Assembly (NCBI GenBank): GCA_964585475.1
Contig: CAZPDF010000002.1
Location: forward strand, 1,631-65,630
Reading direction: 5' to 3'
DNA: 64,000 nt
Source: an uncultured Candidatus Saccharibacteria bacterium
GTDB taxonomy: Bacteria; Patescibacteriota; Minisyncoccia; Sungbacterales; HO2-52-23
A program made the translations under genes and the position numbers. Below the pieces are notes generated by a model. It was not told the DNA's origin. It worked only from the letters and a program-made list of their open reading frames with translations, and made no database searches. Of this stretch, positions 12,026-62,258 are shown piece by piece (position 1 is the stretch's first letter; every line of letters starts with the position of its first letter).

Positions 12026-12897
12026 CTTTCTGCCCCCGTTATTCTTAGAAGTGTTTCCAGTCCACCTTCTCCATAATCTCTGAAAAATTCGCCAGGCTCT
12101 TTATTGTCAAGATTCGGATGCGGAGTTTGCAGCCACTCTCCATAATCCCCCAAATAAAGTTTTAGCGCATTAAACCACTTTTTCATTACTTCGGGGTCAA
12201 CCGGCTTTTTGGTCCAAAGCCAAAGCCAGTGGTGCGGAGACTTGAAGGAGCAATTTTCTTTCCAGACGGTTTTGGCCCGGCCGTTATGTATTTCCTCAAA
12301 CACAAAAGAGTGCTGCGGAATAGGACCTTTCGCTGATACGCGCGTGCGAGAGGTTATAAAGCACTCGTCCCCAATAGTAACGGGGGAGATAAAGTCTACG
12401 AAGGTTCCCACAAAACATCTTTTTCCGATGGTAGTTTTTTGCTTCTTGAGGCCGTCCCAGTTGGAAGTTCCGGTGCCGTGTCCGATATTCGTATCATCCC
12501 CCATAACCGCATCGGCCAGGTAACATTCATGCGGAATCCGCACGCGGTCTCCAACTATGCATCGTTTGAGTTTTGCCCCATCGGTGATGTGCGTATCATT
12601 TCCGATTTTGCAGTCGGTGATGATTACGAGCGGCCCCAGTACGCAGTTATTTCCGGTCACAGTTTCCCCTCTTATAAATGTACTGGGGTGAACTACGGTT
12701 CCCTGGCCGCCGAGGGGCGTTTGGGGATCTATATAGGTATTTAGCGGATCGACAAAAGTTATTCCAGTTCCGCGTATGATCCTCTGTAAGTTAGCTTTTT
12801 GCCACCAAACCGCATTGGGTACGCGCTTCAAGCTTCTCTCCTTTGGAAACGAACTATTTTCTAGATCGGTTATACCATATAGAATGAAGAGTATCAA
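12022..12897 (-). CDS. left-handed beta-helix (hexapeptide-repeat) acyltransferase, GlmU C-terminal-domain-like, with Trp-rich C-terminal extension
   Basis: NWDGLKKQKTTIGKRCFVGTFVDFISPVTIGDECFITSRTRV aligns with GlmU [31 protein letters not shown]; start codon uncertain. Confidence 0.6.
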   Translation of the reverse strand: MILFILYGITDLENSSFPKERSLKRVPNAVWWQKANLQRIIRGTGITFVDPLNTYIDPQTPLGGQGTVVHPSTFIRGETVTGNNCVLGPLVIITDCKIGNDTHITDGAKLKRCIVGDRVRIPHECYLADAVMGDDTNIGHGTGTSNWDGLKKQKTTIGKRCFVGTFVDFISPVTIGDECFITSRTRVSAKGPIPQHSFVFEEIHNGRAKTVWKENCSFKSPHHWLWLWTKKPVDPEVMKKWFNALKLYLGDYGEWLQTPHPNLDNKEPGEFFRDYGEGGLETLLRITGAER

Positions 12898-12902
12898 ACG
12901 CC

Positions 12903-13556
12903 ATGTTTAAGTTATCCAGAGCGCAACTTATCCGATGCCGGGGGATAATTGTCTGGGATTTTGACGGGGTTCTTTTCGAAACCAAACGGCAGAGCATGGA
13001 ATACAGAAGACTGTTGGGAGCGATCGGTATTACAGAGGAAGCGATTGTGGTGGCGCTAAAGCGCTTAGAAAAAAAGAATCGCCTCTTTTCGATAACCGGT
13101 TTTATAGAGGAACTAAACCATAAAGGAAAGCTTTTCCCGGCCGCTATGATACGGAAAATCTTTCACAATAATCTTGTAGTCAATACCTATTATGACTCGA
13201 AAGTAGATGCTATGCTCCACAGACTTAAGAGAAGGGGGTTCATACAATTAATATTGAGTCTTGGCAACGCACAATGGCAGCGAAAGAAAATGTTTGTTGG
13301 CTGCGGTTCCTCCTTCCCGAGACACTTTGCTAGAATTTATACGACCAGGAGACCGAAACACTTTATTTTATCCCAAATAAAAAAACGTTTCCCTGATAAA
13401 CCCGTAATTTTTGTTGATGATACAGAAGAAAATCTTAATTTGGCCAAGAAGCACGTTCCCGAACTGATAACCGTGTATTATTCAAATATAAATGGCCACT
13501 CGCTCGATTCGCTCGAGAAGCGAATTATTAGCTATGTCAAACAAACCGGGAAATAA
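12903..13556 (+). CDS. HAD-superfamily hydrolase
   Basis: Motif I IVWDFDGVLF (DxDGxL); C-terminal FVDDTEEN motif. Confidence 0.55.
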   Translation: MFKLSRAQLIRCRGIIVWDFDGVLFETKRQSMEYRRLLGAIGITEEAIVVALKRLEKKNRLFSITGFIEELNHKGKLFPAAMIRKIFHNNLVVNTYYDSKVDAMLHRLKRRGFIQLILSLGNAQWQRKKMFVGCGSSFPRHFARIYTTRRPKHFILSQIKKRFPDKPVIFVDDTEENLNLAKKHVPELITVYYSNINGHSLDSLEKRIISYVKQTGK

Positions 13557-15303: not shown

Positions 15304-15987
15304 ATGCTACTATCTCGCGACGCTATCCTAAGACATTTTAAGGAGGGCAATATTGTCATTGACCCTTTTAACGAGCGGAAGTTAAGGACCACAAGCTATG
15401 ATGTAACGCTCGGGGAGTGGTTTTGGCGCGAGGGGCATCCGGAAGGACGGGCAACCCTCCACAATCTTTACGACGAAACTTCCACCAAACTGGTTTGGCA
15501 GGGGCCGCATCAGGCCGAGAAGGCGAGGGACGTGTCGGAACGCCTCGGCATGTCCTTGATAAACGTAAGGTCCGATGAAAAGATTATTCTGCTCCGGCCC
15601 GGGGAGACCGTGCTTGCCCATACGGACGAATTTATAGGGGGCCGCAACCGGGTGGTTTCCAAAATGTATGCTCGATCCTCGCTTGGCAGGAATTTCATCG
15701 AGGTTTGTAAAGACGCGGGGTGGGGAGATGTCGGATATTTCAATCGCTGGACCATGGAGGTGACGAATAATTCGCAGTATTTCACGATTCCCTTGGTGGT
15801 GGGACGCCGTATCGGACAGATGGTGTTTTACGAAGTTGAGCCAATTAAGGGCGCGCCGGATTACGTCAAGGATAAGGATAGCGGTAAGTATCAGCGTTCG
15901 CAGGACGTTGAGGAATTGAAAAAAACCTGGGACCCGGAGATGATGATACCGAGAATGCATTTGGATTGGGAGGTTCGCTCGGTATAG
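15304..15987 (+). CDS. dcd: dCTP deaminase / dUTPase-superfamily protein
   Basis: MLLSRDAILRHFKEGNIVIDPF matches the dCTP deaminase N-terminus MILSDRDI...I.I.PF; internal ATG chosen. Confidence 0.65.
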   Translation: MLLSRDAILRHFKEGNIVIDPFNERKLRTTSYDVTLGEWFWREGHPEGRATLHNLYDETSTKLVWQGPHQAEKARDVSERLGMSLINVRSDEKIILLRPGETVLAHTDEFIGGRNRVVSKMYARSSLGRNFIEVCKDAGWGDVGYFNRWTMEVTNNSQYFTIPLVVGRRIGQMVFYEVEPIKGAPDYVKDKDSGKYQRSQDVEELKKTWDPEMMIPRMHLDWEVRSV

Positions 15988-15994
15988 CGGTCCT

Positions 15995-16124
15995 CAGTAT
16001 TTTGCTTTTTAGACAAGGCTTCGGCCGCTCCAGCGGCGGCCTGCAGGGTCGGCGAGGCCCTCGCGCTCTGCGCGAGACCAAGCTACCTCGCCTCCCATTG
16101 TCTCAAAAGCAAAACACTTCGACC
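15995..16124. repeat. About 130-bp structured repeat, family B (GTATTTTGYTTT...CGCTCCAGCGGCG...CCCATTGTYTC.AAARCAAAAYAC.TCGACC), copy 1
   Basis: Near-identical architecture and conserved blocks shared with 62259-62392; terminal IR agtattttgctttttagacaa / ttgtctcaaaagcaaaaca; sits immediately after the dcd stop. Confidence 0.65.
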
Positions 16125-16277
16125 GCCTATGTCTCGCTTGTAGCATGTTATCGAACGATTTATTTTTATCGAGGGCGTGCCTCGATATTTTTTGTCTTGC
16201 CTCTTTATGCTTAGAATGTTATTGTGATCGAGGATCGTTGAAAGAGGGAGGACGCACTGAGGCGCTACCTTCTCGCC

Positions 16278-16889
16278 GTGATAATTTCCTCTATTTTAGG
16301 CACCTTCTGGCACAATCAGTCTTTCGGACAGCTGATTGAAATTGATGGTAAGAATTATCAGTTTTCTCAAATCTATTCTCAAAATATCCTTGAACGCCTT
16401 GGCGACAAAGGAAAAGTCACACAAGTAAGAAATCCGTTTGACAAGAAATCTGTGAAAATGGTTTTTGTGCCGGGATGGACGTGGAGGGAAACATATCGAT
16501 ATACCCTTGCCCAAAAAGTATGGCCACTTTATAGAATGGATTTTACGTTTAGTATTGCTAGTGATAATGATCCATTTTATATTCTTAAGGCCGGTCTCAT
16601 GGCTTCAGAAAAAACCCCATACGGGATTATACGTTTTGAGATTCATAACGTAAGTTATAAACGCCACGAGAATCTTACTGCGCTTAAACAGGTTTTTGAT
16701 GTCGTGGTCAGTGCCACGGAGGAACAAAAGCGAAAAAGGCAGCATGAGCTCGTATGCGTTGAGATGACGGGGGAGCTCTATTTAAGCTCGACTGTTCAAC
16801 GAAAAGACTATGTCCGGGATCTTAAGAACGCGAGCGTCACATTTATTTTTGCGCCGCAATCGGCCAAGATTGTTTCTTGTACCCAGTAA
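16278..16889 (+). CDS. hypothetical protein (possible N-terminal signal peptide; start uncertain, CTG 16257 or GTG 16278)
   Basis: ORF with AAAGAGGGAGGA RBS at 16241-16252; followed by a terminator. Confidence 0.4.
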   Translation: MIISSILGTFWHNQSFGQLIEIDGKNYQFSQIYSQNILERLGDKGKVTQVRNPFDKKSVKMVFVPGWTWRETYRYTLAQKVWPLYRMDFTFSIASDNDPFYILKAGLMASEKTPYGIIRFEIHNVSYKRHENLTALKQVFDVVVSATEEQKRKRQHELVCVEMTGELYLSSTVQRKDYVRDLKNASVTFIFAPQSAKIVSCTQ

Positions 16890-16916: not shown

Positions 16917-17132
16917 GGGAAATGGTCTGCTCAAGAAACTGCCTCAACCGCCGGTGTTTCGCTAGGGGGTTTGCTTAAGGTAGTTTATGAGATTCAACCT
17001 CATAAATTACATAAACCCACCTTATCGAGTTATCGAGGTCGTGCCTCGATATTTTTTTATCGGTCGTACCTGCCTAAAAGAATCCTAGTCAAAAAACTAG
17101 TTTTTTGACTAGGATTCTTTTAATATGGGTAT

Positions 17133-18410
17133 ATGGCCTTAGGGCATCTAAAAACTAAAGATCCGAAACTCGCAAAACTGATAGCGGAGGAAACCCAGCG
17201 CCAGTCGCGGACGCTTAATTTGATTCCTTCGGAGAATATTGTTTCCGAGGCGGTTTTGGAGGCGCTGGGCTCCCCGCTCACCAATAAATACTCCGAAGGG
17301 TATCCGGGGAAACGATATTACGGAGGGAATGAAATTATTGATAAAGTTGAGGTGTTAGCGCAGGAACGCGCGCGGAAAGTTTTTCGCTTGGGAAAGAATT
17401 GGCACGTGAATGTTCAGCCCTATTCCGGTTCGCCCGCGAATTTTGCGGTTTATTTTGCATTGCTTCGGCCCGGGGATAAATTGATGGGAATGTCTTTGCC
17501 TTTTGGCGGGCATCTTACGCACGGCTGGAAGGTGTCCGCAACCGGAAAATTCTGGACACCCGTTCAGTATACGCTTGGCCGGGCTGGCTATATTGATTAT
17601 GAGGAAGTTAGGACGCTTGCGCGAAAGGAGAGGCCGAAAATTATTGTTGCGGGTGCCACGGCTTACCCCCGAATTATAGATTTTAAAAAATTCGGGGAAA
17701 TTGCAAAAGAAGTTGGCGCGTACTTTATGGTGGACATGGCGCATATTGCGGGACTTATCGCGGCAGGAGCACATCCATCACCTTTTCCATATGCTGATGT
17801 TGTAACTACGACGACGCATAAAACCCTGCGTGGTCCCCGCGGCGCGATTATCTTCTCCCGCAAAGATCGTTTCGTAATGTCAAATGTCAAAGGTCAAATG
17901 TCAAAGGTTTCGATTGCCGAGGCAATCGACAAGGCCGTTTTCCCCGGACTTCAAGGCGGCCCGCATGACAATCAAACCGCAGCCATTGCCGTATGTCTTG
18001 GTGAGGCCATGAAGCCTGCGTTCAAAAAATACGGGAAGCAAATCGTGAAAAATGCGCGTGCGCTTGCGAAGGAACTTATGCGGCTTGGGCTTCAACTGGT
18101 TTCCGGCGGTACAGATAACCACCTAATGCTTGTTGATCTGACTAATTTAGGGATTTCCGGGCGCGAAGCGCAGGATCGGCTTGAGCAGGTCGGGATTATA
18201 GTGAATCGTAACACCATTCCGTATGACACCCGCTCGCCCTTTGATCCTTCGGGGATTCGGCTTGGCACACCGGCGGTTACGACACGAGGGATGAAAGAGA
18301 AGGAGATGAAAGAGATTGCGCGGTTGATTTATGGGGTATTGACTGGAGAAAATACGGATGCTATAAAAAAAGAGGTAAAAGATCTTTGCAGAAAATTTGG
18401 GGGGGTTTAG
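17133..18410 (+). CDS. glyA: serine hydroxymethyltransferase
   Basis: LIPSENIVSEAVLEALGSPLTNKYSEGYPGKRYYGG...VVTTTTHKTLRGPRG PLP-lysine region; small in-frame repeat insertion at 17876-17912. Confidence 0.95.
   Translation: MALGHLKTKDPKLAKLIAEETQRQSRTLNLIPSENIVSEAVLEALGSPLTNKYSEGYPGKRYYGGNEIIDKVEVLAQERARKVFRLGKNWHVNVQPYSGSPANFAVYFALLRPGDKLMGMSLPFGGHLTHGWKVSATGKFWTPVQYTLGRAGYIDYEEVRTLARKERPKIIVAGATAYPRIIDFKKFGEIAKEVGAYFMVDMAHIAGLIAAGAHPSPFPYADVVTTTTHKTLRGPRGAIIFSRKDRFVMSNVKGQMSKVSIAEAIDKAVFPGLQGGPHDNQTAAIAVCLGEAMKPAFKKYGKQIVKNARALAKELMRLGLQLVSGGTDNHLMLVDLTNLGISGREAQDRLEQVGIIVNRNTIPYDTRSPFDPSGIRLGTPAVTTRGMKEKEMKEIARLIYGVLTGENTDAIKKEVKDLCRKFGGV
17876..17912. repeat. Tandem TGTCAAA(G)G repeat, in-frame in glyA (VMSNVKGQMSKVS)
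   Basis: cgtaatgtcaaatgtcaaaggtcaaatgtcaaagg. Confidence 0.6.
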
Positions 18411-22097: not shown

Positions 22098-22424
22098 GTT
22101 CCACCCCGTTATCTATTCCATTCCCACCATATCACTGTTTGTGGATACAGAAAAGCCGGTAGCAAGTCCGGGGTTCTATATGGGTGAGAAGGGAGTTGCT
22201 GCCCAAATAAATTTGGGCGAGCCTCGCCCCGATTAAAATCGGGGCGGGAACCCGCCCGTTCAGATGCCGCGGGAGAGAGTTGAACTCTCACGGGGTTGCC
22301 CCCAATGGATTTTGAGTCCATCGCGTCTGCCAATTTCGCCACCGCGGCACACCGCTATTTTATTATAAAAACGCCCGTTTTTCAATGGTTGAAAATAAAA
22401 GTTCATTGGTTTAAAGTTCAAGTG

Positions 22425-23201
22425 ATGGCCCGCATAATTTCTCTTTGCAACCAAAAAGGTGGAGTTGGGAAGAGTACTACCAGCATTAACCTTAGTGTGT
22501 TTTTAGCCGCTCTTGGGAAGCGAGTGCTTTTGGTGGATGTAGATCCGCAGGCCAATACCACTTCCGGCATGGGGCTTAACCCGCGCAAGCTTGAGAAAAG
22601 CATCTACCATGCGCTTATCGGAAAGGCCAAGCCGCAGGACGTGATTAAAAGGACGCAAATCCTCGCGGTTGATATTTTGCCTTCGTCCCCGGCGCTTGCC
22701 GGTGCGGCCATTGAGCTGGTTGACATGCGGAATAGAGAATATAAACTAAAGGAGGTTTTAGAAGAGGTACGGCGGAAGTACGACTTCATTATTATAGATT
22801 CTCCCCCGAGTTTGGGCCTGCTTACGATAAATGCGCTTACCGCGGCCGGAAAGGTAATAATTCCGGCTCAATGCGAATATTATGCTTTGGAGGGGTTGGC
22901 CGATCTGCTTCAGACCATCCAGCTTGTAAATACTAATCTCAAGACCCGAACGGGAATACTCGGGGCGTTACTCACGATGTATGATCGAAAATCCCGGCTT
23001 CACCGGGCGGTCGCGAAGGAGATTCGCAGGAAGTTTCCGGGTTACGTCTTTGATGCGGTGATTCCGCGGAACGTAAGCTTGGCCGAAGCGCCATCATTCG
23101 GAAAAACCATTTTGCAGTATGACCCTTATTCTCACGGGGCAAAAGCATACAGACAACTCGCAGAAGAGATTTTGAAGCTGGAAGGTATCAGAAAAGTCTA
23201 A
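22425..23201 (+). CDS. parA: chromosome partitioning ATPase ParA/Soj
   Basis: MARIISLCNQKGGVGKSTTSINL deviant Walker A; start chosen at the internal ATG. Confidence 0.9.
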   Translation: MARIISLCNQKGGVGKSTTSINLSVFLAALGKRVLLVDVDPQANTTSGMGLNPRKLEKSIYHALIGKAKPQDVIKRTQILAVDILPSSPALAGAAIELVDMRNREYKLKEVLEEVRRKYDFIIIDSPPSLGLLTINALTAAGKVIIPAQCEYYALEGLADLLQTIQLVNTNLKTRTGILGALLTMYDRKSRLHRAVAKEIRRKFPGYVFDAVIPRNVSLAEAPSFGKTILQYDPYSHGAKAYRQLAEEILKLEGIRKV

Positions 23202-23223
23202 TCACTAATCTAACTCGAATTTC

Positions 23224-23241
23224 TTCGCGAATATTCGCGAA
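23224..23241. promoter_or_regulatory. Perfect 18-bp palindrome TTCGCGAATATTCGCGAA between parA and parB
   Basis: Self-complementary; the same TATTCGCGAA core recurs twice upstream of ftsZ (54102-54111, 54135-54144). Confidence 0.5.
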
Positions 23242-23266
23242 TCAAATTAGGGGTTGATTCGAGAAA

Positions 23267-24277
23267 ATGACAGATCCATTAGGTAGGGGCCTCGAATCCT
23301 TAATACCCAACAAAGAGCCGGACGAAGTTCCGGGGGTTTTGAATACGGAGCCGCAGGATCCGCCCTCTCCTTTAGCAGAAAAACCCCGGCCGTCTCTTGT
23401 CAATCTTGGCTCTCCGGCCGCGCGCACTTACGAGGATCATTTTACTCCTCGCAGGAGCGATTCTGTTTTTTGGATAGAAATTGAAAAAATCGAGCCGAAT
23501 CCTTACCAGCCGCGCCGCGAATTTAATGAGGAGGCATTAAAAGGGCTTGCGCATTCCATCCGCGAACACGGAGTGCTCCAGCCGATACTTGTTACCAAGC
23601 GCGAGATAGAAACTCCGACCGGCCTGGATGTCCGGTATCAATTGATTGCCGGAGAAAGACGGTGGCGCGCGGCAGGCCTGGCCGGCCTCTCCCAAATTCC
23701 TGCGGTAATCAGGCGCGGCATTCCGGATGACCGGATACGGCTTGAGCTCGCCTTAATTGAGAATGTACAGCGCGAGGATTTAAACCCGATGGAAAAAGCC
23801 CGGGCATTCAAGCAATTGATTGACGAGTTTCATCTGGTACAGCGCGAGATTGCCGAGCGCATCGGAAAATCGCGTGAGATGATTGCCAATACCCTCCGTC
23901 TTTTATCACTTTCGCCGGACATCCAGCAAGCGCTCCACGAGGGGCGCATAACCGAAGGACACGCGCGGGCGGTTTTGATGGCCGGTGACGATCCGCAAAA
24001 ACAGACGCTAGTTTTTAATGCCGTGGTAATGGATCGCCTGAATGTTCGAGAGGCGGAAAACCGCGCGCGGCAAGTTTCCGGAAAAATTTTTGTTCCGCGA
24101 AAACGTCCTGCGCAAGTCCATGATCCGGAGACGCGTTCTTGGCAGACAAAACTCGAGGAGCTATTAGGAACTAAAGTCCGAGTGGAGAAATTGGGCGAGC
24201 GCGGAAAAATTGTCGTTGAATTTTATTCGGATGAGGAATTAAGAGGTATACTTGACAAATTAATAAGGGAGGTATAG
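23267..24277 (+). CDS. parB: chromosome partitioning protein ParB/Spo0J
   Basis: IEKIEPNPYQPRREF...QLIAGERRWRAAGLAG...HTH; C-terminal GERGKIVVEFYSDEELRGILDKLIREV. Confidence 0.9.
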   Translation: MTDPLGRGLESLIPNKEPDEVPGVLNTEPQDPPSPLAEKPRPSLVNLGSPAARTYEDHFTPRRSDSVFWIEIEKIEPNPYQPRREFNEEALKGLAHSIREHGVLQPILVTKREIETPTGLDVRYQLIAGERRWRAAGLAGLSQIPAVIRRGIPDDRIRLELALIENVQREDLNPMEKARAFKQLIDEFHLVQREIAERIGKSREMIANTLRLLSLSPDIQQALHEGRITEGHARAVLMAGDDPQKQTLVFNAVVMDRLNVREAENRARQVSGKIFVPRKRPAQVHDPETRSWQTKLEELLGTKVRVEKLGERGKIVVEFYSDEELRGILDKLIREV

Positions 24278-26320: not shown

Positions 26321-26507
26321 TTTCACCCCTTTGGTTTGGTAAACTGCTGATTATGCGAATCCGCGTGTCGTTTGAGGGCCTTGCGAGGCGGAGCGGCCAT
26401 GGTTTTCCGCCGGAGGCGGAAAGAGCGACGCCGAGCACGGGAGGTGAGGACGCCTCGGCGGGGCGTCCGACAGCCGTACCGAAAACGACATGTGGATGAG
26501 CGATCTT

Positions 26508-28244
26508 CTAAAGCAGTTTATACCCCACCTCCTCCACTCCTTTCACCTCTTTCAGTTTCACCCTGGTTTTCTCAAGCTGGACGCGATTTTTAAAAGGGGC
26601 CTGGATTGATAAAACCGCCCAGGCCTGATTTTTGGTATCGGTAACCACTTTTTTTATATTTATTTTTTGCCGAGCGAGAACGTTGGTAACGTCCCTCAAA
26701 AGCCCCACACGATCTTTGATGGTGAGATTCAGTTCAACGGTTTCTCCGCCTCGTTTTTCAAACGTGTTCTCCTCCCGAAGTTTTTTCAAAACCGAAGACA
26801 CTTTTTTCCGCGCTTGCGCGCTTTTGACAAACCCAAGCCAGTCGCGGCTTGGCTTTTTATTTTTCTGCGTCAAAATTTCAACGACGTCCCCGTTTTTCAA
26901 TTGATGATCCAGCGCCGTCATTTTGCCATTTACTTTGGCTCCGGTGGCGCTGTTTCCTATGTCCGTATGAATATGGTAGGCAAAGTCCACTGGCGTTGCT
27001 CCTTCCGGCAGATCAAAGACATCGCCTTTTGGGGTAAGTACGAAAATACGGTTTTTGAAGAAATCAATTTTCAATGATTCAAGAAATTCGTCCGGCTTAT
27101 CAAATTCTTTCTGCCATTCGCGCAATTGCTCGATCCAAGCGTACTGTTTCCGGTTCACTAGGGCCTGCTTTTCTTCGGCGTATGAGGCGGTTTGAGTTCT
27201 TTTGAATTCGGAGTACGCCCAGTGCGCGGCAATGCCATATTCTGCTTCCTCGTGTATCTCATCCGTCCGCATCTGTATTTCCACCGGCCTTTCTTCCGGC
27301 CCAAAAACCGTCGTGTGGAGAGAGCGGTAGCCATTGGGTTTGGGCAGGGCAATATAGTCCTTGATTTTTCCCGGCATCGGGCGCCAGAGCTTGTGTACTA
27401 CACCCAGGGTCGCGTAGCAGTCCTCTACTGTCGGCACGATTACCCTAAGCGCCACGAGATCGGTGATTTTGGAAATATCCATATCGTATTTAAGGAGTTT
27501 TTTATACAAGCTGTAGTAGCGTTTGGCCCGCGCGTGAATATCGAGGAATTTTATTTTTTCTCGAGCCAGCTCCTCCGCGATAAAGGGCTTTATTTTTTTG
27601 ACGTATTGATCCCAATCCTCGTATTTCTCTTGGGCCGTGCGCATGATCCATTCGTGCTCCTTGGGATATACATAAGGGAACGCTAAATCCTCGAGTTTCC
27701 CGGATAGTTCTTGTATGCCCAGGCGGTACGCAAGAGGTGCGTAAATTTCAAGGGTTTCTAAAGCGATCCGCCGCTGTTTTTCCGGCGGCAGGTGACCCAA
27801 AGTTTCCATATTGTGGGTACGGTCTACGAGTTTAAGAAGCACAATCCGAATATCTTCGGCGATCGCAAGGAACATTTTTCTCAAGCTCTCGGCGGTTCTT
27901 TCCGTGCCTCTGTAGCGGATTTTGTCGAGTTTCGTCACGCCTTCAACCAAAAATGCGATTTCATCCCCAAAATTTTTCTTTATATCCGCAATCGTATATT
28001 CGGTATCTTCGCAAACATCATGAAGGAGGGCGGCGGCAATTGTCGGCGCATCAAGCCGCATCTCGGCAAGCCGCAGCGCCGTGGCCATGGGGTGCACGAT
28101 ATAGGGCTCGCCGGATTTTCGTTTTTGGCCTTCGTGGGCGTGGGACGCAAAATCATACGCTTTTTTGATAAGCGCTGAATCTTGGTCCGGCCGCGCCTGA
28201 ATTTTCATTTTTTCCAAAAGCGAATTGACGGTCATGATAGCCAT
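26508..28244 (-). CDS. bifunctional (p)ppGpp synthetase/hydrolase, RelA/SpoT (Rel) family
   Basis: HD domain HDVCEDT; synthetase motifs (DLVALRVIV, RSLHTTV); TGS (IFVLTPKGDVFDLPEGATPVDFAYHIHTDIG); C-terminal ACT-like; start at MAIMTVNSLLEK. Confidence 0.9.
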   Translation of the reverse strand: MAIMTVNSLLEKMKIQARPDQDSALIKKAYDFASHAHEGQKRKSGEPYIVHPMATALRLAEMRLDAPTIAAALLHDVCEDTEYTIADIKKNFGDEIAFLVEGVTKLDKIRYRGTERTAESLRKMFLAIAEDIRIVLLKLVDRTHNMETLGHLPPEKQRRIALETLEIYAPLAYRLGIQELSGKLEDLAFPYVYPKEHEWIMRTAQEKYEDWDQYVKKIKPFIAEELAREKIKFLDIHARAKRYYSLYKKLLKYDMDISKITDLVALRVIVPTVEDCYATLGVVHKLWRPMPGKIKDYIALPKPNGYRSLHTTVFGPEERPVEIQMRTDEIHEEAEYGIAAHWAYSEFKRTQTASYAEEKQALVNRKQYAWIEQLREWQKEFDKPDEFLESLKIDFFKNRIFVLTPKGDVFDLPEGATPVDFAYHIHTDIGNSATGAKVNGKMTALDHQLKNGDVVEILTQKNKKPSRDWLGFVKSAQARKKVSSVLKKLREENTFEKRGGETVELNLTIKDRVGLLRDVTNVLARQKINIKKVVTDTKNQAWAVLSIQAPFKNRVQLEKTRVKLKEVKGVEEVGYKLL

Positions 28245-28283
28245 AGTGTATTCTAAAGAAGGTCCTTTTTCAAGGAGAAAATT

Positions 28284-28658
28284 ATGGTACTCAAGGGGGT
28301 ACTGCAGAAGCGTCCAACCGAAATCGCGGCAGAATGCATAGCTGTCATTCTTTCTGAGATCCCCATGAATTATGAATTTCATCAAGTTGTGCGCGAGCGC
28401 GCCAAAGACTTGATCAAGAGACGTTCTCAAAAATTAGGCGAAGGTCCACGGCTCTCAAATAGTGATCACGAAACTGCCGCACGCCTTGTGGCCGGAATGT
28501 CCATGTACTATATGTACGCATCAGAATGCGAAGCCGTGCTGGATGAAGTGTTTCTCAAGGCGCAACGGATCAAGGCGGAACTTGACTCAATTACCTCCAC
28601 GAGAGACCACCTTGAATGGCTTGAAGTAGCGGCAGATGTACGAGGAACTAAGAAATAA
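28284..28658 (+). CDS. hypothetical protein, divergent from rel
   Basis: AGGAG RBS 7 nt upstream of ATG; terminator downstream. Confidence 0.4.
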   Translation: MVLKGVLQKRPTEIAAECIAVILSEIPMNYEFHQVVRERAKDLIKRRSQKLGEGPRLSNSDHETAARLVAGMSMYYMYASECEAVLDEVFLKAQRIKAELDSITSTRDHLEWLEVAADVRGTKK

Positions 28659-37554: not shown

Positions 37555-37978
37555 GACCACATTTTTTATTTTTTTCAACCCCTTGACAAGTTTTAGGCCA
37601 GCGCTACTCTGGTATCAGACAAATCGTTTATCCTATCGAGAGTCCCAGAAAGGAAAGGGCAACCTTGCGGAACTTCCGACTTGCAACTTCCGACTTCCAA
37701 CGACTTCTTTGTTGGTAGTTGGTGGTTAATTGTTGGTTGTTGCGTAAGCGCCGACTCTATCCCTAAGGATCCCTAAGCTCCGACATGCGTCGGAGCCGGG
37801 ATGGCGGCCGCTATAAGCGGCTTAGCCATAGAGTTTCGGTTGCCTATTGACCTTTTTCGGGATTTTTTGTTAGGGTGAGCGAGACGACCTTTGACAAGGA
37901 GAAGAAATCAATGAGACGTTTTTGGATGGTTTTGGGCACGATCGCGATGCTTTTCGGTTCATTTTCTTATGTCCAGGC
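37555..37978. repeat. 424-bp direct repeat, copy 1 (promoter region, structured 5' leader, and the first 23 codons, i.e. the signal peptide, of the downstream gene)
   Basis: Identical over about 424 bp to 39623-40046, from gaccacattttt... through ...tcttatgtccaggc; contains TTGACAag and internal hairpins such as gctccgacatgcgtcggagc. Confidence 0.9.
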
Positions 37979-39587
37979 CGAGACGGATATTCAGAAGCTG
38001 TCGAAGGTACTCCCGGCAGACGTTTTCAAAGAAGTTTCTAAAATTCCCCCCAAGCCGCACTTTTTGCTTGGCCTTGAGCCTAAGACCGATGAATGGGAGC
38101 AATACCTTGAATGGAGAAAGATCTTCCAGACGAAGGATCTTTTCTACGGGTATAATGGCTCCGGTGTCATGGATAAATCCCGCGCAGATTATGTCGCCCC
38201 GGGCAACACCGAGCTTTCAGAGACGGTGAACGTTTCCGGAAAAAATATTCTGATTCTTTACACTCATCACCACTTTACGAAGGACGGAATGCACTCGTTC
38301 TGGTCGGTCACGGGAGAGAAGAACTTGGCGGAGTTTTCTCCTGTCTATCGGAAATACGAAATCCAATGGGGACTCGGACATTTGAGCGACGAGCAGTGGA
38401 AAAATATCCAGCGGGTGCTCGGCTGGGCGCAATTTGAAGCAATGAAGGAGCTTGTTCATGATGTGATTGGTTGGGCTCTTAAGAAAAACCTCAAAGATTA
38501 TAGCGAGATGAATCTTACCGAAGGAGTGCTTGAGGCCCGCGCCGTCCTTCTTGACGATCCGGATTATAAGAAACGGCTTGATGATCCAGTTCCGGGGACA
38601 GCCGGGCTAAAAGTGCGAGACATTATTCCTGTGCCGCTGACGAGGGCCGAGGATTTTCTGCCCGATCTTCTTATTGTAGGACCCAGGGGTTTCTACGGCG
38701 GATTTGCTAACTGGAAAACACCCGATATGGAGCGAATTGTTTTCTTTGACCTCCTTGGACTTGCGCTCTGGCATGTGTCCGGCTGGCCGATGCCTGCGCA
38801 CGAATTCGTGCACACGAACCCCTATCTTCAGGGAATTCCGCTTAGCTTTTATTATGATATCGAGATGTGGGCGGATTTGACGACTGGGCTTGAATCCGGG
38901 ATGCGCGAGTTCCTGTTCCATCCTTATATGGCAGTGGTTCGAGATTCGGTGCGCACCCAATTCGGCTATGATTACGAGGAAGCCAAGCGCCGCATCATGC
39001 CGGGGCAATTCGGGGTAAAAGATATTCGCGAGAAGGAATTCCGAGAGCATGCGAGGCGCGTGAAAGTGATTCGGGATGAACTTGTGCGTTTTGTGAAAGA
39101 TCCGAAAAAAGGACTTCTCGTGCGGTTCTACAGCGACCCGTATTACTGGGTGGCGATCAATACTAAATACTGCGATACCGCAGCTGCCTGGAGAATTCTC
39201 TTTGCCCTGTCATACGAGCCTGCCGGTCTTTATGATCCTGATAAGAAGGATAAAGACGGCAAGATAGTTTCAGCGGTACAGCAGACCAAGGAATGGCTTA
39301 CTAGAGAGGAAGATGGGGGCAACATCAGGCGCCTTGCAGAAAAGGCGATGGCAAATACGGGCAAAGAGTCTAAATTCGCGAAGGAGCTTTCCAAAGTCGA
39401 GTCCAATGAATTAATGAAGTGCCCGGTTGATTCTCGCTGGTTCCTTATGAACGAAGCGGAAAAACGTATGTTCCATGATTTTATAAAGCCGCTTCTTCTG
39501 CAGGGGAAAGACGGAGACCCTGACGCAAGGGTTCTCCTCATGAGAATTTTTGGTCCCGCCATTCTTCAGCGCCTGCAGATTCGCTAG
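37911..39587 (+). CDS. secreted putative zinc metallopeptidase-like protein (HEFVH...E), paralog 1
   Basis: ATG with AAGGAGAAG RBS; signal peptide MRRFWMVLGTIAMLFGSFSYVQA; HEFVHTNPYLQG...E motif conserved with the paralog; shared C-terminal FYSDP block. Confidence 0.5.
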   Translation: MRRFWMVLGTIAMLFGSFSYVQAETDIQKLSKVLPADVFKEVSKIPPKPHFLLGLEPKTDEWEQYLEWRKIFQTKDLFYGYNGSGVMDKSRADYVAPGNTELSETVNVSGKNILILYTHHHFTKDGMHSFWSVTGEKNLAEFSPVYRKYEIQWGLGHLSDEQWKNIQRVLGWAQFEAMKELVHDVIGWALKKNLKDYSEMNLTEGVLEARAVLLDDPDYKKRLDDPVPGTAGLKVRDIIPVPLTRAEDFLPDLLIVGPRGFYGGFANWKTPDMERIVFFDLLGLALWHVSGWPMPAHEFVHTNPYLQGIPLSFYYDIEMWADLTTGLESGMREFLFHPYMAVVRDSVRTQFGYDYEEAKRRIMPGQFGVKDIREKEFREHARRVKVIRDELVRFVKDPKKGLLVRFYSDPYYWVAINTKYCDTAAAWRILFALSYEPAGLYDPDKKDKDGKIVSAVQQTKEWLTREEDGGNIRRLAEKAMANTGKESKFAKELSKVESNELMKCPVDSRWFLMNEAEKRMFHDFIKPLLLQGKDGDPDARVLLMRIFGPAILQRLQIR

Positions 39588-39622: not shown

Positions 39623-40046
39623 GACCACATTTTTCTTTTTTCGCAACCCCTTGACAAGTTTTAGGCCAGCGCTACTCTGGTATCAGACAAATCGTTTATC
39701 CTATCGAGAGTCCCAGAAAGGAAAGGGCAACCTTGCGGAACTTCCGACTTGCAACTTCCGACTTCCAACGACTTCTTTGTTGGTAGTTGGTGGTTAATTG
39801 TTGGTTGTTGCGTAAGCGCCGACTCTATCCCTAAGGATCCCTAAGCTCCGACATGCGTCGGAGCCGGGATGGCGGCCGCTATAAGCGGCTTAGCCATAGA
39901 GTTTCGGTTGCCTATTGACCTTTTTCGGGATTTTTTGTTAGGGTGAGCGAGACGACCTTTGACAAGGAGAAGAAATCAATGAGACGTTTTTGGATGGTTT
40001 TGGGCACGATCGCGATGCTTTTCGGTTCATTTTCTTATGTCCAGGC
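39623..40046. repeat. 424-bp direct repeat, copy 2
   Basis: See copy 1; ATG offset is identical (2068 bp) in both copies. Confidence 0.9.
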
Positions 40047-41436
40047 TGATACGGTCTGGCCCAAAGAATGTCAGGGCAAGGAGCCGCACTACCTTACTGG
40101 ATTTACGCAGACCAAAGATCAAATCGATGCTTTCTTCCAGATGCAGCAAAACTATCGGATGAGTCAGGCAGATTCTGCTAACCGTGCGGTGCGTGCTACA
40201 AACCTTGGAGAGTACGTAAAGCTTACCTTCTACGGCCACACGCTTACGCTATATCTGCCGATGTACCGGCAAGTGGGAAATACTGTTTACTTCCATACCG
40301 CATCCGGGGTGACACCCCTTACCGTACAGGAATTTGAGTGCGTGAAAGCGGATCTGAAGCAATGGATTCAGAGCGCGGTTGATGCAGACTACGATGATCA
40401 TAAGATGATTACTACGATCGCGGTCGAGAGTTTTGGCAAGCGAAACAATATGACTCCGGAAGCTGTGTATAAGCTTCTCGCAAAGCAGGTTCCAGAGTAC
40501 GGCACGAACTATGCTGACGTTTTGAAGATCCCCCTGCTTGAGCCAGTAGATTTCATCAGAAGTGTGAAATACATGTATTTCACAGCGATGGGCTCCTGCA
40601 ACGCCACCGTCTATGTCAAGACCGTGGTAGCGCTTACTCCGTGTGTGCGACGCATGGATCATATCATCGGCTATCCTACCGTGATGAAGCATGAGCTGAT
40701 TCATGCGAACATCAAACTCCAAGGATATCCCATTGCCTGGCACATGAATTACGAGCTTTTTGCCGCCCTGCTTCCTTTTCTTGAGCAGCCGACAAACCTT
40801 GACGACTTTTTCTATCACACGTATCTTTCGACGCCTTGGGAGATTCTCAAAGTGTTTGGCCGCTGGGATATCCAGAAGGTGCGTCAAGAGATTTTCCGCT
40901 ACGTCGTGGCTTGGCGCGGCAGCGCGATGAACCGAGAGGTTCTGGCAGGCTACCTTGCCGAGATTAACGAAGCCGCTAAGTGGCTTCGGGAGACTGGCCT
41001 GCAGGCGCTCGCCGAATTTTATTCCGATCCCCACGCTTGGGCTGCGGTAAACGACATGTTCTATGACGACGATATGGCCTATAAAGCGATAATGGCCAAA
41101 AACTGGGAGCCCACGCTTCTTAAGGGCCATGCTAATACCGTGAAATTCATCCTTAAGCATGCGGATCAATCAAAGTCGATTGCCGAAAGGGCCATGGAGC
41201 GGGTAGGAAAGGATAGTAAGGGCTTTGAAGACGACCGTCGCGTCAAGGCCCTCGGGGAGTATTTGAAACTCGCCGAGGCGCTCGGTTTCTCGAAAGACGA
41301 GCTAGTCCGCATGGGGCGCGCGCATGGATACCGCATTGAGCATTTCGAGCGGATGGATCTTGACATGATGCGCCAACTCATGAATGATTTCCTTAAGGGA
41401 GAAGGAATGTTTGAGAAAAGACTGGAGGTGCGCTAA
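39979..41436 (+). CDS. secreted putative zinc metallopeptidase-like protein (HELIH...E), paralog 2
   Basis: Signal peptide identical to paralog 1, then divergent; HELIHANIKLQGYP...E; FYSDPHAWAAVN block. Confidence 0.5.
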   Translation: MRRFWMVLGTIAMLFGSFSYVQADTVWPKECQGKEPHYLTGFTQTKDQIDAFFQMQQNYRMSQADSANRAVRATNLGEYVKLTFYGHTLTLYLPMYRQVGNTVYFHTASGVTPLTVQEFECVKADLKQWIQSAVDADYDDHKMITTIAVESFGKRNNMTPEAVYKLLAKQVPEYGTNYADVLKIPLLEPVDFIRSVKYMYFTAMGSCNATVYVKTVVALTPCVRRMDHIIGYPTVMKHELIHANIKLQGYPIAWHMNYELFAALLPFLEQPTNLDDFFYHTYLSTPWEILKVFGRWDIQKVRQEIFRYVVAWRGSAMNREVLAGYLAEINEAAKWLRETGLQALAEFYSDPHAWAAVNDMFYDDDMAYKAIMAKNWEPTLLKGHANTVKFILKHADQSKSIAERAMERVGKDSKGFEDDRRVKALGEYLKLAEALGFSKDELVRMGRAHGYRIEHFERMDLDMMRQLMNDFLKGEGMFEKRLEVR

Positions 41437-49318: not shown

Positions 49319-49546
49319 ATGGTCGAGGTAAAAAGACGACAAAATGAAACCACCGGGGCCATGCTCCGGAGATTTACCCGAAGAGTCCAACAATCGGGCA
49401 TTTTGATTCAGGCGCGAAAAATCAAGTTTTATAAGCATAAACCGACGAGACGTGCCATGCGCGAGAGGGCTTTGCGGAGAGGGCAGAAGATGAAAGAAAT
49501 TGAGAGGTTGAAGAAATTGGGGAAATACAAGGAGGATGAGAGATGA
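49319..49546 (+). CDS. rpsU: 30S ribosomal protein S21
   Basis: MVEVKRRQNE...LRRFTRRVQQSGIL...KPTRRAMRERALRRGQKM. Confidence 0.8.
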   Translation: MVEVKRRQNETTGAMLRRFTRRVQQSGILIQARKIKFYKHKPTRRAMRERALRRGQKMKEIERLKKLGKYKEDER

Positions 49547-49811
49547 GAAAGGCGCGGTTTCCTCGGCAATTCTTTTTGAAAACACGCACGGCTGCCCCAG
49601 CGGGCAGCCGTGCTCAGTGATCTGCCGGCGACTCGCCTTCGGCGAGACCGTGCTCGCCGGCCTCTCAATGGTTTTCTAAAAGAACTGCCTCGACCGCTTG
49701 GACCCATCTTAAAAGAAAAAAGTGAAAAGGAAATGAAAAAACCGAGGAGCAATCCTCGGATTTGACTTTTCACAACCTTCCGCTTATATTGGTGCTAGAT
49801 CATATAAAAGA

Positions 49812-50585
49812 GTGGATGGAATGTCCGAGATTAAGGTTGCTACCCTTCCGAACGAAGTAGCACATGCACTACAAAACGCTGTCGAGCGTGTCGGCGGAAT
49901 CAACCACCTTAGGAGCGAATCGGCAGACGCAATCCGTACTCCCCGGGTAATTGTGTTTAATTCCGTTCTTTTTCGTGCACTCTTGGCAGAATATGTTAAT
50001 AAAGGCCAGACATTCAGCGATATCAGACGTAAAGATCCGCGTTTATTCCACACGCTTCTTGGTATGTATGTTGGCGATGTCAAGACCAAAGATCGCCTTT
50101 ACACCATGCAATTGGTTGATGGGGAAAGCGGACCGATTGATGGGGCGGTGTTTGAAGCGTGGGTCTTGACACCAGAGATTTCAGCCAGACATTTTCATCA
50201 AAAGCATGAAGCGCTAGCCAGGCTCTTGCGAAGATACGGCAAAGTGAAAAGCTACAAAATTGAGGGCTATGACCATATTGAGGCGCCGCTTAATCGTTAC
50301 GCCGGGGACCACCCCAACCATTTTCGAAGAACCAAGTATCTTTCTTCTGTCTGGCTTAACTCCGACTTACAGCTAGGACAAAGGAGGGGCGGAACTTTTC
50401 GGTTTTTCGATTCCTTCTTAATCGGCAATGGCCATGCGGGTAAAACGAGCGAGAAAAGCGCAAAGATTCCTAAGAAGTTTTGTGATTATTCCGGCCCATT
50501 CCTCCGCATCATCATGCGTTGTAGAAAAGACCGCGCACCGGAGTTTATCAAAGTTGTCACAAAATGTGTAGAGGTGCTCATATAG
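49812..50585 (+). CDS. hypothetical protein
   Basis: 257-aa ORF, no recognisable motifs; lies between similar ccgaggagc.atcctcgg hairpins (49742-49760 and 51077-51095) together with the TA remnant. Confidence 0.4.
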   Translation: MDGMSEIKVATLPNEVAHALQNAVERVGGINHLRSESADAIRTPRVIVFNSVLFRALLAEYVNKGQTFSDIRRKDPRLFHTLLGMYVGDVKTKDRLYTMQLVDGESGPIDGAVFEAWVLTPEISARHFHQKHEALARLLRRYGKVKSYKIEGYDHIEAPLNRYAGDHPNHFRRTKYLSSVWLNSDLQLGQRRGGTFRFFDSFLIGNGHAGKTSEKSAKIPKKFCDYSGPFLRIIMRCRKDRAPEFIKVVTKCVEVLI

Positions 50586-50703
50586 GGAAAGACCCAAATG
50601 CTGTGCTATTATATAGTGCGGCATTTTAATTTGGGCACCGAAGATTCGTTTCCAGGAGCGGCTCCTCGGTTGACTTTATTGTTTTTGGGATTAGGATAGC
50701 AAT

Positions 50704-50979
50704 ATGCCCACTATTACTACTCCACGGCATGTGAAAACAAGCGAAGATTTGGTTGCTATTCCACGGAAAGAATATGAGGAGTTTTTGCGCACGCAAAAAC
50801 GCAATGGGAGAGAGGGAAGAGTGAAGCATACGATGAGGGCGCCAAAGAAACCTGAGAGATTTTATAATGGGCTCGATCGGGAGCTTACCGAAGCGCTGCG
50901 AGACATAGAAGCCGGCAAAACCTACGGGCCGTTCAACACCGCAGAAGAGGCGATACGCTTTCTTCGCCGAAAGAGATGA
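50704..50979 (+). CDS. AbrB/MazE-fold antitoxin candidate (paralog of 25091-25324) with RelB/ParD-like C-terminal tail
   Basis: DLVAIPRKEYEEFL versus DLVVIPRGEYEDLL in the paralog; C-terminal LTEALRDIEAGKTYGPFNTAEEAIRFL. Confidence 0.5.
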   Translation: MPTITTPRHVKTSEDLVAIPRKEYEEFLRTQKRNGREGRVKHTMRAPKKPERFYNGLDRELTEALRDIEAGKTYGPFNTAEEAIRFLRRKR

Positions 50980-51067
50980 TGCTAGAATTTACAAAGAAGT
51001 TTGACGATACGTACCGTTCATTTCCGAAAGAGGTTTTTGAATATAAAAAAACACAAGGATTGATTTA
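50975..51067 (+). pseudogene. 5' remnant (30 codons) of a RelE/ParE-family toxin gene
   Basis: MMLEFTKKFDDTYRSFPKEVFEYKKTQGLI** matches the toxin N-terminus (EFT..F...Y...PKEV) and overlaps the antitoxin stop by 4 nt as in intact TA operons; truncated by tandem stops just before the hairpin at 51077. Confidence 0.45.
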
Positions 51068-51101
51068 ATAAAACCACCGAGGAGCGATCCTCGGTGTTGT
51101 G

Positions 51102-51602
51102 TTATATTCTGCGGAAGACTGTAGAAGGCCGCATGGTGAGATAGAACTCTTTGGCCCTCCGGCCTTTCAGGTTTTTGGCGCCATATTTATGAAATGCTTC
51201 CGCTGTGGGTAAGGCTCTCCAGCGTAAGAATGTTTTGAGGCGTGAATCTTTTTTGGGGTCGCGGAGGAACGCGATGAGATCGTTGTATGACCACTCGGCA
51301 AAGATCTCCAGACGCGCAAATGCTCTGTAGAACTTCTTCAGCGGGGATTTAAGTTCCGGCGGATCAACCTCGGAAAGATAAAGGTTTTTGTAGCCCTGTG
51401 ATATGCGAGGATCTTTTAGAACCCGTTTTGCTGTAGCAAGCCATTTTCCGACTTCAGCAGAGTAGGGCGTTCCGTGCTTTTTAGCTTGAGCCATGAGTTT
51501 TCCTTCAAACTCACCGACTGTCATTCTAACCCGAGCGGTTTTCATCTCGTTCCACGCTGATTCAATATCGGCAAGAGCTTTCTGGATGGTAGTCATCCCC
51601 AT
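51102..51602 (-). CDS. hypothetical protein
   Basis: 166-aa ORF. Confidence 0.4.
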   Translation of the reverse strand: MGMTTIQKALADIESAWNEMKTARVRMTVGEFEGKLMAQAKKHGTPYSAEVGKWLATAKRVLKDPRISQGYKNLYLSEVDPPELKSPLKKFYRAFARLEIFAEWSYNDLIAFLRDPKKDSRLKTFLRWRALPTAEAFHKYGAKNLKGRRAKEFYLTMRPSTVFRRI

Positions 51603-51691
51603 TTTTCCCGTTGAGATCTCTCCTTAATTGTAGGTAGATATAATTGATTGTCAAGGTTGACTTTAACAACAGGAGTTGTTACGAAGAAGAT

Positions 51692-52590: not shown

Positions 52591-52700
52591 GTTCAAAACT
52601 CTAAACTCTAATCAAGTTCAAAGTTCCAAGATCAAAATTCAAATACGGATATTTTGGGTTTTGAGTTTAAAGTTTTCTTAGAGTTTAGAATTTGGAGTTT
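52580..52700. repeat. Intergenic low-complexity inverted repeat of the AAACTCTAAACTCT / TTCAAAATTCAAAT type
   Basis: gttcaaaactctaaactctaatcaagttcaaagttccaagatcaaaattcaaatacggatattttgggttttgagtttaaagttttcttagagtttagaatttggagtttagagtttt. Confidence 0.65.
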
Positions 52701-58322: not shown

Positions 58323-58365
58323 CACGCCGAGGAGGGCGGAGGAGAATTTTTGTCAAGAAACGTAC

Positions 58366-62244: not shown

Positions 62245-62258
62245 AACGGTGGTTCCCT

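Follow-up and report, generated by a model that had tools for sequence, protein, structure and literature searches.

What is the structured element of about 130 nucleotides that stands directly behind the dcd and nrdJ genes of an uncultured Candidatus Saccharibacteria bacterium, and does it act as an RNA or as a mobile element? The locus lies in a 64,000-nucleotide stretch of contig CAZPDF010000002.1 (hereafter the window). The original prediction had placed one copy at 15995–16124 and another at 62259–62392, and had seen in them a structured RNA or a miniature inverted-repeat transposable element (MITE) rather than an ordinary terminator. Both stretches are present with every motif quoted for them, and the description was apt: the element is no ordinary terminator and has features of both. 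We collected 22 distinct copies in all, with a core of about 130 nt, or about 165 nt when an outer helix is included, and all of them share one covarying fold around a three-way junction. We propose tentatively, and with somewhat less than even confidence, that the behaviour of the family is that of a non-autonomous mobile element, comparable to REP/REPIN, ERIC or Correia elements, and that selection maintains its unusually elaborate fold.

The copy behind dcd (copy A) and the copy behind nrdJ (copy B) are 79% identical over their aligned stretch. Both start GTATTTTG(C/T)TTT, end in the complementary AAA(A/G)CAAAA(C/T)AC and carry CGCTCCAGCGGCG and CCTCCCATTG in the middle. They fold alike, into a three-way junction above a long, AU-rich stem at the base (z = −5.2 for copy A and −6.4 for copy B, with 0 of 200 shuffles folding as well), and the covariance model built from their relatives scores copy A at 105.8 bits (E ~1e-22) and copy B at 142.4 bits (E ~1e-30). 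The extents first given for them cover the basal stem, P1, and the core, and miss an outer helix, P0, with which the copies run from 15984 to 16130 and from 62241 to 62404. The ‘terminal inverted repeat’ also described there is real as an inverted repeat, since it is stem P1; its sequence varies between copies, however, and only the pairing is kept.

Homologues were also found beyond the window. The exact two-block pattern, run over one genome per species, gave 21 loci, 8 of them obvious homologues and 13 chance matches in coding DNA. All eight homologues belong to metagenome-assembled genomes (MAGs) of Patescibacteria, labelled Sungiibacteriota, Parcubacteria group, Patescibacteria group or Saccharibacteria, and a metagenome scan added copies on groundwater contigs. 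A first covariance model, made from 10 sequences, revealed two more copies in the window (C and D) and second copies in L010 and L030 (labels of this kind denote loci outside the window); a second model was made from the 22 distinct sequences and scores C at 91 bits and D at 61 bits. True matches of the pattern and model scans are confined to Patescibacteria MAGs and groundwater metagenomes. On viral contigs the pattern matched only one unrelated phage coding family or by chance, and none of these matches fits the covariance model. The closest named homologues of the Dcd and S21 proteins of the window come from Candidatus Sungbacteria and the Parcubacteria group. A scan of Rfam, which the original prediction had suggested, brought nothing relevant: at gathering thresholds, Rfam 15 has a single match in the whole window, a tRNA, and between 15900 and 16250, with E up to 10 and on both strands, only radC appears (13.1 bits against a cut-off of 40; E = 2.6). 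Searchable literature, queried for the motifs and for structured RNAs in Patescibacteria, held no description of the element.

The consensus fold common to all copies has 42 pairs in four helices, of which P1, P2 and P3 meet at the three-way junction. Its parts, read from 5′ to 3′, are as follows.

P0, 5′ arm (sense): consensus (UAG)GCGGU(U).
Internal loop between P0 and P1: conserved and asymmetric, UUCCUC on the 5′ side and CUCG on the 3′ side (UCG after the 3′ arm of P1).
P1: about 20 bp, AU-rich; the sequence varies between copies and pairing is kept.
Junction J1/2 (sense): ACACGA.
Extended P2: a covarying Y–R pair, a tandem UC/UC, 7 bp and the loop CCAGC, closed by U·G.
Junction J2/3 (sense): CUAAG.
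P3: base GG-UC-GG/CC-UC-CC, variable P3a, 3′ internal loop AACCAAGCAA and variable P3b with a triloop.
Junction J3/1 (sense): AU.
P0, 3′ arm (sense): consensus (A)ACCGCC(UA).

Covariation, which had been named as a check to make, bears this fold out. With 10 sequences, 26 of the 42 pairs were already compensatory; with 21 distinct sequences, 34 of 42 are changed on both sides and 93% of cells are paired, compared with 40–53% in slid controls, although these counts lean towards structure because the 21-sequence alignment was fitted to the model. None of 500 shuffles reaches the observed values, and an independent MAFFT/RNAalifold run recovered the same helices. Three conserved tandem UC/UC mismatches sit inside the helices. 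The one at the base of P3 is the same in 21 of the 22 copies. The one at the base of P2 must lie within a continuous helix, since the pair beyond it is C–G in nine copies and U–A in nine, and since two copies replace the tandem itself by two Watson–Crick pairs.

Open reading frames (ORFs) cross the elements on both strands; it is the helices that covary, however, and the frames differ between copies, which speaks against a coding or read-through function. A pseudoknot of J2/3 with the internal loop of P3 was also rejected, as inspection of the aligned copies gave it neither a consistent register nor covariation. It should also be noted that the tetranucleotide CUCG appears repeatedly, flanking P0, P1 and P2 on either side (in copy B, for example, at 62256–62260, 62282–62286, 62304–62307 and 62385–62389), with up to five occurrences per element on the sense strand and 0–2 on the reverse strand. 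This recurrence could reflect a structural motif of tandem mismatches or a repeat that binds protein, or it could be what nested insertions with target duplication have left behind.

Two copies, as first described, was an undercount. The window holds four full copies, behind dcd (A), nrdJ (B), rpsU/S21 (C) and relA/spoT (D), together with one solo outer hairpin and one relic of a 3′ end:

15984–16130, plus strand: copy A, the whole structure from P0 to P0′, directly behind dcd; the model match spans 15994–16121 (105.8 and 108.2 bits).
15984–15991, plus strand: 5′ arm of P0 of copy A, AUAGCGGU, including the dcd stop TAG at 15985–15987.
15997–16015, plus strand: 5′ arm of P1 of copy A, GUAUUUUGCUUUUUAGACA, from fold and alignment.
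16023–16041, plus strand: hairpin P2 of copy A, GGCCGCU-CCAGC-GGCGGCC; U·G closes the loop, and six of the seven pairs covary across the family.
16046–16096, plus strand: arm P3 of copy A, with the base GG-UC-GG/CC-UC-CC, variable P3a and P3b and the 3′ internal loop ACCAAGCUA.
16099–16117, plus strand: 3′ arm of P1 of copy A, UGUCUCAAAAGCAAAACAC, from fold and alignment.
16122–16130, plus strand: 3′ arm of P0 of copy A, ACCGCCUAU, pairing with the 5′ arm at 15984–15991 with one C bulged.
16167–16194, plus strand: intrinsic terminator behind copy A, 37 nt downstream; an 8-pair stem, then TTTTTTG.
62241–62404, plus strand: copy B, the whole structure; P0 is UUAAAACGGUGGU/ACCACCGUUUUUAAA and encloses the nrdJ stop TAA at 62242–62244 (z = −6.4; 142.4 bits).
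49539–49710, plus strand: copy C, divergent, behind rpsU (S21, ORF 49319–49546); model match 49563–49692, 91 bits.
26340–26520, minus strand: copy D, the most divergent, behind relA/spoT (26508–28430, minus strand); model match 26357–26498, 61 bits.
55277–55303, plus strand: solo outer hairpin, 5 nt past the ftsZ stop; a 10-bp stem with the loop UUCCUCG, that is, P0 and the internal-loop motif without P1 or the core.
About 16925–16952, plus strand: relic of the 3′ end of an element (..AAACUGCCUCAACCGCC) behind ORF 16278–16889, from sequence comparison.

The terminator 37 nt past copy A places this copy within the 3′ untranslated region (UTR) of dcd. In copy C the outer P0, GAGAUG/CAUCUU, overlaps the S21 stop TGA (49544–49546). 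In copy D, P0 is formed by UAAACUGCU, the last relA codons, paired with AGCAGUUUA on the 3′ side of the element; this 5′ arm is the native end of the relA coding sequence, because RelA of L059 also ends YKLL*. The solo hairpin behind ftsZ is either a target that no element occupies or the remnant of a deletion, and a search for further solo hairpins with a UUCCUCG loop found only this one. The sequence that follows the relic matches the tail behind the dcd copy in L059. Run over the window with filters off, the second model gave no further full copy and only generic hairpins, which score equally on both strands.

The outer helix ties the element to the gene in front of it. P0 is formed from both flanks and frequently holds the stop codon of the upstream gene: a stop lies within P0 or the foot of P1 in at least eight copies (A, B, C, L003, L012, L031 and the first of L030, and in L005 within P1). 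Flanks of the same copy pair better in P0 than flanks taken from different copies (median −12.5 versus −8.8 kcal/mol; p = 0.004), and the consensus GCGGU/ACCGC is kept in about half of the copies. Eighteen of the 22 copies start 0–30 nt past the stop of an identified gene on the same strand; the remaining four are the second copy of L030, which stands in tandem, L042, which is 92 nt behind a same-strand gene, L035, behind a doubtful ORF of 62 residues, and the second, nested copy of L010. About seven copies lie 14–38 nt ahead of the next same-strand start codon, a gap so tight that the sense strand must be transcribed through the element. TAG appeared frequent among the adjoining stops (about 9 of 18), but the difference from the background of the window (22 of 56) is not significant.

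The upstream genes are diverse. They encode Dcd (three genomes), NrdJ, S21, RelA/SpoT, MurA (two genomes), L11, S9, CorA, an acylphosphatase, MetK, UvrD, an SLT-domain protein and a DUF2585 protein, as well as DnaK in two genomes, identified by eye from its N-terminal sequence. In the window, Pfam identifies a dCTP-deaminase-like protein upstream of copy A (PF22769) and a class II ribonucleotide reductase with an intein upstream of copy B; the S21 homologues carry PF01165. The link to nucleotide metabolism that the first two copies had seemed to imply thus dissolves once the copies behind S21, RelA/SpoT, MurA, L11, S9, DnaK, MetK, CorA and others are included: the host genes are mutually unrelated and the association is coincidental.

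How the copies are distributed argues for mobility. The window has four full copies, compared with one in about 310 kb around dcd and S21 of five or six relatives (duplicate contigs included). The dcd site is occupied in the window, L040 and L059 and empty in L054, L055, L057 and L061, among relatives whose Dcd proteins are 75–80% identical. The S21 site is occupied in the window only, with an apparent 3′ end of the element (..AUUACCUCGACCGCG) in L067, and the relA site is empty in L059. Sequence identity does not group the copies by locus: copy B, behind nrdJ, is nearest to the first copy of L010, behind murA of another genome (82%), L018 is nearest to L031 (90%), and the three dcd copies share only 56–64% with each other. 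The outer columns of P1 are only 32–41% identical between the dcd and murA copies compared. L030 has two copies in tandem, and at 205–470 of L010 a complete element is nested within the P0 and P1 stems of an outer one. This nested element lies antisense-upstream of frr and is the sole copy that is not behind a same-strand gene. In size and number (130–165 nt, below the MITE limit of about 300 bp; non-coding; multiple dispersed copies) and in the presence of filled and empty dcd, S21 and relA sites among relatives, the family resembles MITEs.

Taken together, the family may be a structure-recognized mobile element, or the descendant of one, that seeks out hairpins close to stop codons or persists there. 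P1 and the core would spread as a unit by inserting into or beside such hairpins. Recognition of the folded single strand of this unit by an enzyme encoded elsewhere would account for the conservation of the fold in all copies. The orientation, always that of the upstream gene, together with the placement before terminators or in tight intercistronic gaps, indicates that the element is co-transcribed into the 3′ UTR. In the mRNA, the duplex of 20–35 bp beside the stop codon should then act as a ribosome-sensitive stem-loop, opened by terminating ribosomes, and would be a plausible substrate of RNase III; by analogy with ERIC and Correia elements, it may modulate the stability or processing of the mRNA of the flanking cistrons.

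Several observations weigh against this reading. A Pfam scan of about 26 ORFs of the window, which are housekeeping genes or have no Pfam match, returned neither a transposase nor a Y1/HUH enzyme or a reverse transcriptase. The copies show no clean target-site duplication: CCUCG flanks the P1 unit in about ten of the 22, CUCGC flanks P0 in about seven, TA...TA is seen in about six, and the flanking CUCG/CUCGC direct repeats coincide with conserved structural positions. The putative terminal repeats, that is, the arms of P1, differ between copies, whereas the ends of classical MITEs are transposase-binding sites. No near-identical pair of copies was seen, so that no recent transposition event is documented. 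Finally, the strict tie to gene orientation and stop codons fits a host RNA function equally well.

The choice of strand adds further difficulty, and here the evidence is a puzzle, as the genomic context points to the sense strand and the chemistry of the fold to the antisense strand. The P0 helices contain G·U pairs on the sense strand (two in L012, and others in L040, copy C and the solo hairpin), and RNAalifold gives −55.3 kcal/mol for sense and −46.9 kcal/mol for antisense, a comparison confounded by the poorer antisense alignment in the variable apex. On the other hand, the reverse complement is the more stable in 16 of the 22 copies, by 5.7 kcal/mol on average (p = 0.002), and for P1 alone it is favoured in 11 copies against six (p = 0.03). 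Within the helices, A·C mismatches outnumber G·U pairs by 21 to 5, the single invariant U·G set aside. The UC/UC tandems would be, on the opposite strand, the classical sheared tandem G·A of the (CGAG)2 type, and the P3b triloops, which are pyrimidine-rich on the sense strand, read GAA, GGA or AAA on the reverse. One reading that accommodates both sides is that P0 is a host-side helix of the sense RNA and that the fold of the inner unit has been selected on the complementary single strand during propagation.

We may wonder whether the element is instead maintained for the benefit of its hosts. It would then be a cis-acting module of 3′ UTRs and intercistronic regions to which a conserved protein or nuclease binds. 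The module would define or protect the upstream cistron at its 3′ end, insulate cistrons from each other or couple the fate of the mRNA to translation termination, and its spread, by duplication or recombination, would be secondary. We regard this as unlikely, though it is an alternative of some weight. It would account for elements that abut the upstream gene in its own orientation with the stop in P0 or P1 in at least eight copies, for the sense-strand G·U pairs of P0, for the invariant U·G that closes P2, for the preference of RNAalifold for the sense strand and for junction sequences that are invariant across MAGs labelled Sungiibacteriota, Parcubacteria and Saccharibacteria. Copy D is telling in this respect, as a P0 3′ arm complementary to native relA codons implies selection for enclosing the gene end in a helix. 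Such a module fits poorly, however, with the patchy distribution and the filled and empty sites among close relatives, with the lack of clustering by locus and with the nested, tandem and relic forms. Moreover, conserved pyrimidine–pyrimidine tandems and C-rich, G-poor loops are unusual in a functional sense RNA, and the terminator hairpin that copy A already has behind it would make 3′-end protection by the element redundant. If the module acted instead on transcription termination or polarity, as a complex terminator or a structured Rho-loading (rut) site, its position directly behind stop codons and its unpaired sense segments rich in C and YC (UUCCUC, CUCG, CCAGC and AACCAAGC) would be in keeping. 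We consider this very improbable: no U tract follows P1 or P0, as the definition of an intrinsic terminator demands, a separate intrinsic terminator stands behind copy A, termination would silence the operon genes that start 14–38 nt behind about seven copies, and a rut site requires neither a conserved three-way junction nor covarying stems.

A different set of explanations gives the RNA a life of its own. It could be a new ribozyme that cleaves itself, an RNA that senses a ligand or acts as a sponge for proteins, or a small RNA originating in the 3′ UTR; cutting within the P0/P1 duplex would free it from the host transcript, and it might come from the antisense strand. The three-way junction, the invariant junction nucleotides and the strong covariation would suit such an RNA, the long basal duplex is of the kind that RNase III would excise from precursors, and the reverse-strand topology, with its tandem G·A by the middle hairpin, recalls a type III hammerhead. 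The hammerhead core (CUGANGA and GAA with an unpaired A14) is nevertheless absent, the would-be A14 covaries as part of a pair, and Rfam holds no matching ribozyme, riboswitch or small RNA up to E 10 on either strand. No candidate ligand or target could be identified, and many diverged copies per genome would be unusual for a trans-acting RNA, so that we judge an independent RNA improbable. The nucleotide-metabolism variant, a regulator of dcd and nrdJ such as a 3′ riboswitch for deoxynucleotides, is hardly credible: two of the four window copies stand behind these genes, and L040 and L059 also have dcd copies, but the range of unrelated genes that carry the others contradicts it, the dcd and ribonucleotide reductase genes of close relatives lack the element, and no riboswitch family matches. 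We would also give a small chance, no better than rather improbable, to a new class of mobile nucleic acid that depends on its structure, for instance a SINE-like (short interspersed element-like) bacterial retro-element, or alternatively to a new class of ribozyme or protein-binding RNA that punctuates operons of the candidate phyla radiation (CPR). For the retro-element, read-through transcription from the host gene would produce the strict sense orientation behind stops, and a cDNA or bottom-strand intermediate that is folded and recognized would explain the reverse-strand G·A tandems, the purine triloops and the greater number of wobble pairs.

The preferred reading, a mobile element recognized by its fold, rests in part on comparison with dispersed repeats of other bacteria. 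The element belongs to none of the ERIC/IRU, Correia/CREE, REP/REPIN and attC families, yet it shares traits with each. ERIC/IRU elements, about 127 bp long, are imperfect palindromes scattered through transcribed intergenic regions; they share transcripts with their neighbours, and their orthologous sites are filled or empty between genomes. An ERIC near a stop codon forms an RNA stem-loop that is opened by terminating ribosomes and affects the stability of the upstream transcript, and at gene 3′ ends the ribosome-dependent exposure of an RNase E site alters transcript stability (PMC2229807; PMC10969869). ERIC elements are found in another phylum (in enterobacteria) and have no sequence relationship to the present family, and an ERIC is essentially one long hairpin, whereas the present element is built around a three-way junction whose nucleotides are invariant, has three conserved tandem mismatches and is strictly oriented relative to the gene. 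The Correia elements (also NEMIS or CREE), which are MITEs of Neisseria, likewise measure about 100–155 bp, have inverted repeats around a conserved core and occur as many gene-adjacent, co-transcribed copies; the duplex of their inverted repeats is bound and cleaved by RNase III (PMC2649163; PMC2229807). Correia ends, however, are conserved 26-bp repeats, with a TA duplication and an IHF site, whereas here the stem sequence varies with pairing kept and there is no clean duplication. The sequence TATAGCGG at the 5′ end of copy A also occurs in Correia elements, which we judged coincidental.

REP/BIME and REPIN–RAYT elements are extragenic palindromes at gene 3′ ends and between operon genes, they form long-lived populations of diverged copies, and their structure is conserved since a Y1 transposase recognizes the folded single strand. 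They have a GTAG-type foot, and several copies here read GUAG|GCGG...CCGC|CUAC: a GUAG-like foot is present in L003 and the first copy of L030, and UAG in copy A, L031 and the nested copy of L010. Ribosomes are reportedly stalled by stop-proximal REPs (work of Liang, Rudd and Deutscher from 2015). A REP, however, is a simple hairpin of about 35 nt and a REPIN a pair of these; a three-way junction is present in neither, and REPs are not bound to one orientation relative to the gene. The 64 kb examined showed no RAYT gene. Integron attC sites come close in other respects, being structured imperfect palindromes of 57–141 nt that begin at or over the stop of the preceding ORF in a single orientation, with structure conserved above sequence. 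Their functional folded strand is the complement of the coding strand, which matches the mismatch chemistry seen here. The RYYYAAC/GTTRRRY boxes are nevertheless absent, the ends reading (UAG)GCGGUU ... AACCGCC(UA), and the flanking genes are syntenic housekeeping genes 10–20 kb apart, not a promoterless cassette array, with no integrase nearby. RNase III stems (the intercistronic stems of phage T7, those of rRNA precursors and the intervening sequences of 23S rRNA) share the intercistronic location, the asymmetric internal loop and the long duplex made from flanks, and if such a stem were cleaved, the upstream RNA would keep a 3′ structure that protects it. They are not, however, dispersed repeat families with a conserved junction core.

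Individual RNA classes fared no better as assignments. A type III hammerhead on the reverse strand needs CUGANGA ... GAA ... UH, and what is found is CUUAGYGA ... GAR-UCGUGU, with no Rfam hammerhead match. A ribozyme like that of hepatitis delta virus (HDV) requires a nested double pseudoknot whose P1 is formed by nucleotides 3′ of the cleavage site, but GGGUCGG has no covarying CCGACC partner in reach and Rfam gives no HDV match; the 11-mer CUAAGGGUCGG is also present in an HDV ribozyme paper. An assignment to the purine or 2′-deoxyguanosine riboswitches fails on their defining features. Among structured dispersed intergenic repeats, the element stands out by its conserved three-way junction, the three invariant tandem mismatches, the coupling to stop codons and the occurrence in CPR bacteria. 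These bacteria have tiny, compact genomes with almost no described non-coding elements, and a well-supported structured family without an Rfam match is a ready candidate for curation and experiment. The stop-codon placement, the tandem mismatches and the mobile dynamics suggest either a new mark of gene ends or a new structure-recognizing mobilization system. The covariance model can also serve as a marker for contigs of the Sungbacteria and Parcubacteria type in groundwater metagenomes.

Some further observations concern the family and its sites. In the subfamily from MAGs labelled Saccharibacteria (L030 at 12716–13110, minus strand, L031 and L018/L036) the element is followed by a conserved 35-nt 3′ tail, GGCUCGCUGGAGCAUGNNNAUAAGRUAGGGCUCGCC, which recurs both before and after the second, tandem copy of L030. 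Pairing of the conserved 3′ tail (GGCUCGCUGGAGCAU) with P2 was rejected: complementarity to the P2 loop occurs only in the L018/L030 subfamily, own and cross pairs show no difference, and shuffled tails give p = 0.07. Two near-identical terminator hairpins, TATCGAGG(G/T)CGTGCCTCGATATTTTTT (16167–16194 and 17033–17057), flank the unknown ORF 16278–16889, and since an element's 3′ end stands before either hairpin, that of the intact copy A in one case and the relic in the other, a duplication or insertion between dcd and glyA is suggested. In five relatives S21 is followed by yqeY after 75–166 nt; about 2 kb separate the two in the window (49547–51643), where the likely yqeY, from gene order, is ORF 51644–52174. 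This extra sequence behind S21 starts with copy C and has three ORFs, and both of those scanned are without a Pfam match. The intein of NrdJ (gene 58279–62244) contains a LAGLIDADG homing-endonuclease domain and occupies approximately residues 211–571. The ribonucleotide reductases of relatives are much shorter (778–996 residues), so that those of 778–780 residues probably lack an intein.

Other features of the window stand apart from the family. The tRNA gene matched by Rfam has a long variable arm and lies at 22265–22348 (minus strand), just upstream of parA/parB (22296–24277). A direct repeat of 300 nt with 99% identity (37555–37854 and 39623–39922) is placed just upstream of the paralogous ORFs 37875–39587 and 39943–41436, whose products have the identical N-terminus VSETTFDKEKKSMRRFWMVLGTIAMLFGSFSYVQA and no Pfam match. 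A second repeat family, AGTCATTCTGAGCG(C/A)AGCGAAGAATCT...GATCCTTCG, occurs at 1086–1126, 4877–4917 and 63801–63841 and may correspond to the ‘Family A’ of the original prediction, and a palindrome similar to it, GTCATTCC...GGAATGAC, lies behind S21 in L073. Finally, intergenic AT-rich arrays of 5–7-nt units such as TTCAAAATTCAAAATTCAAA are found at 3277–3303, 4491–4517, 5153–5211, 17879–17905 and 52585–52643.

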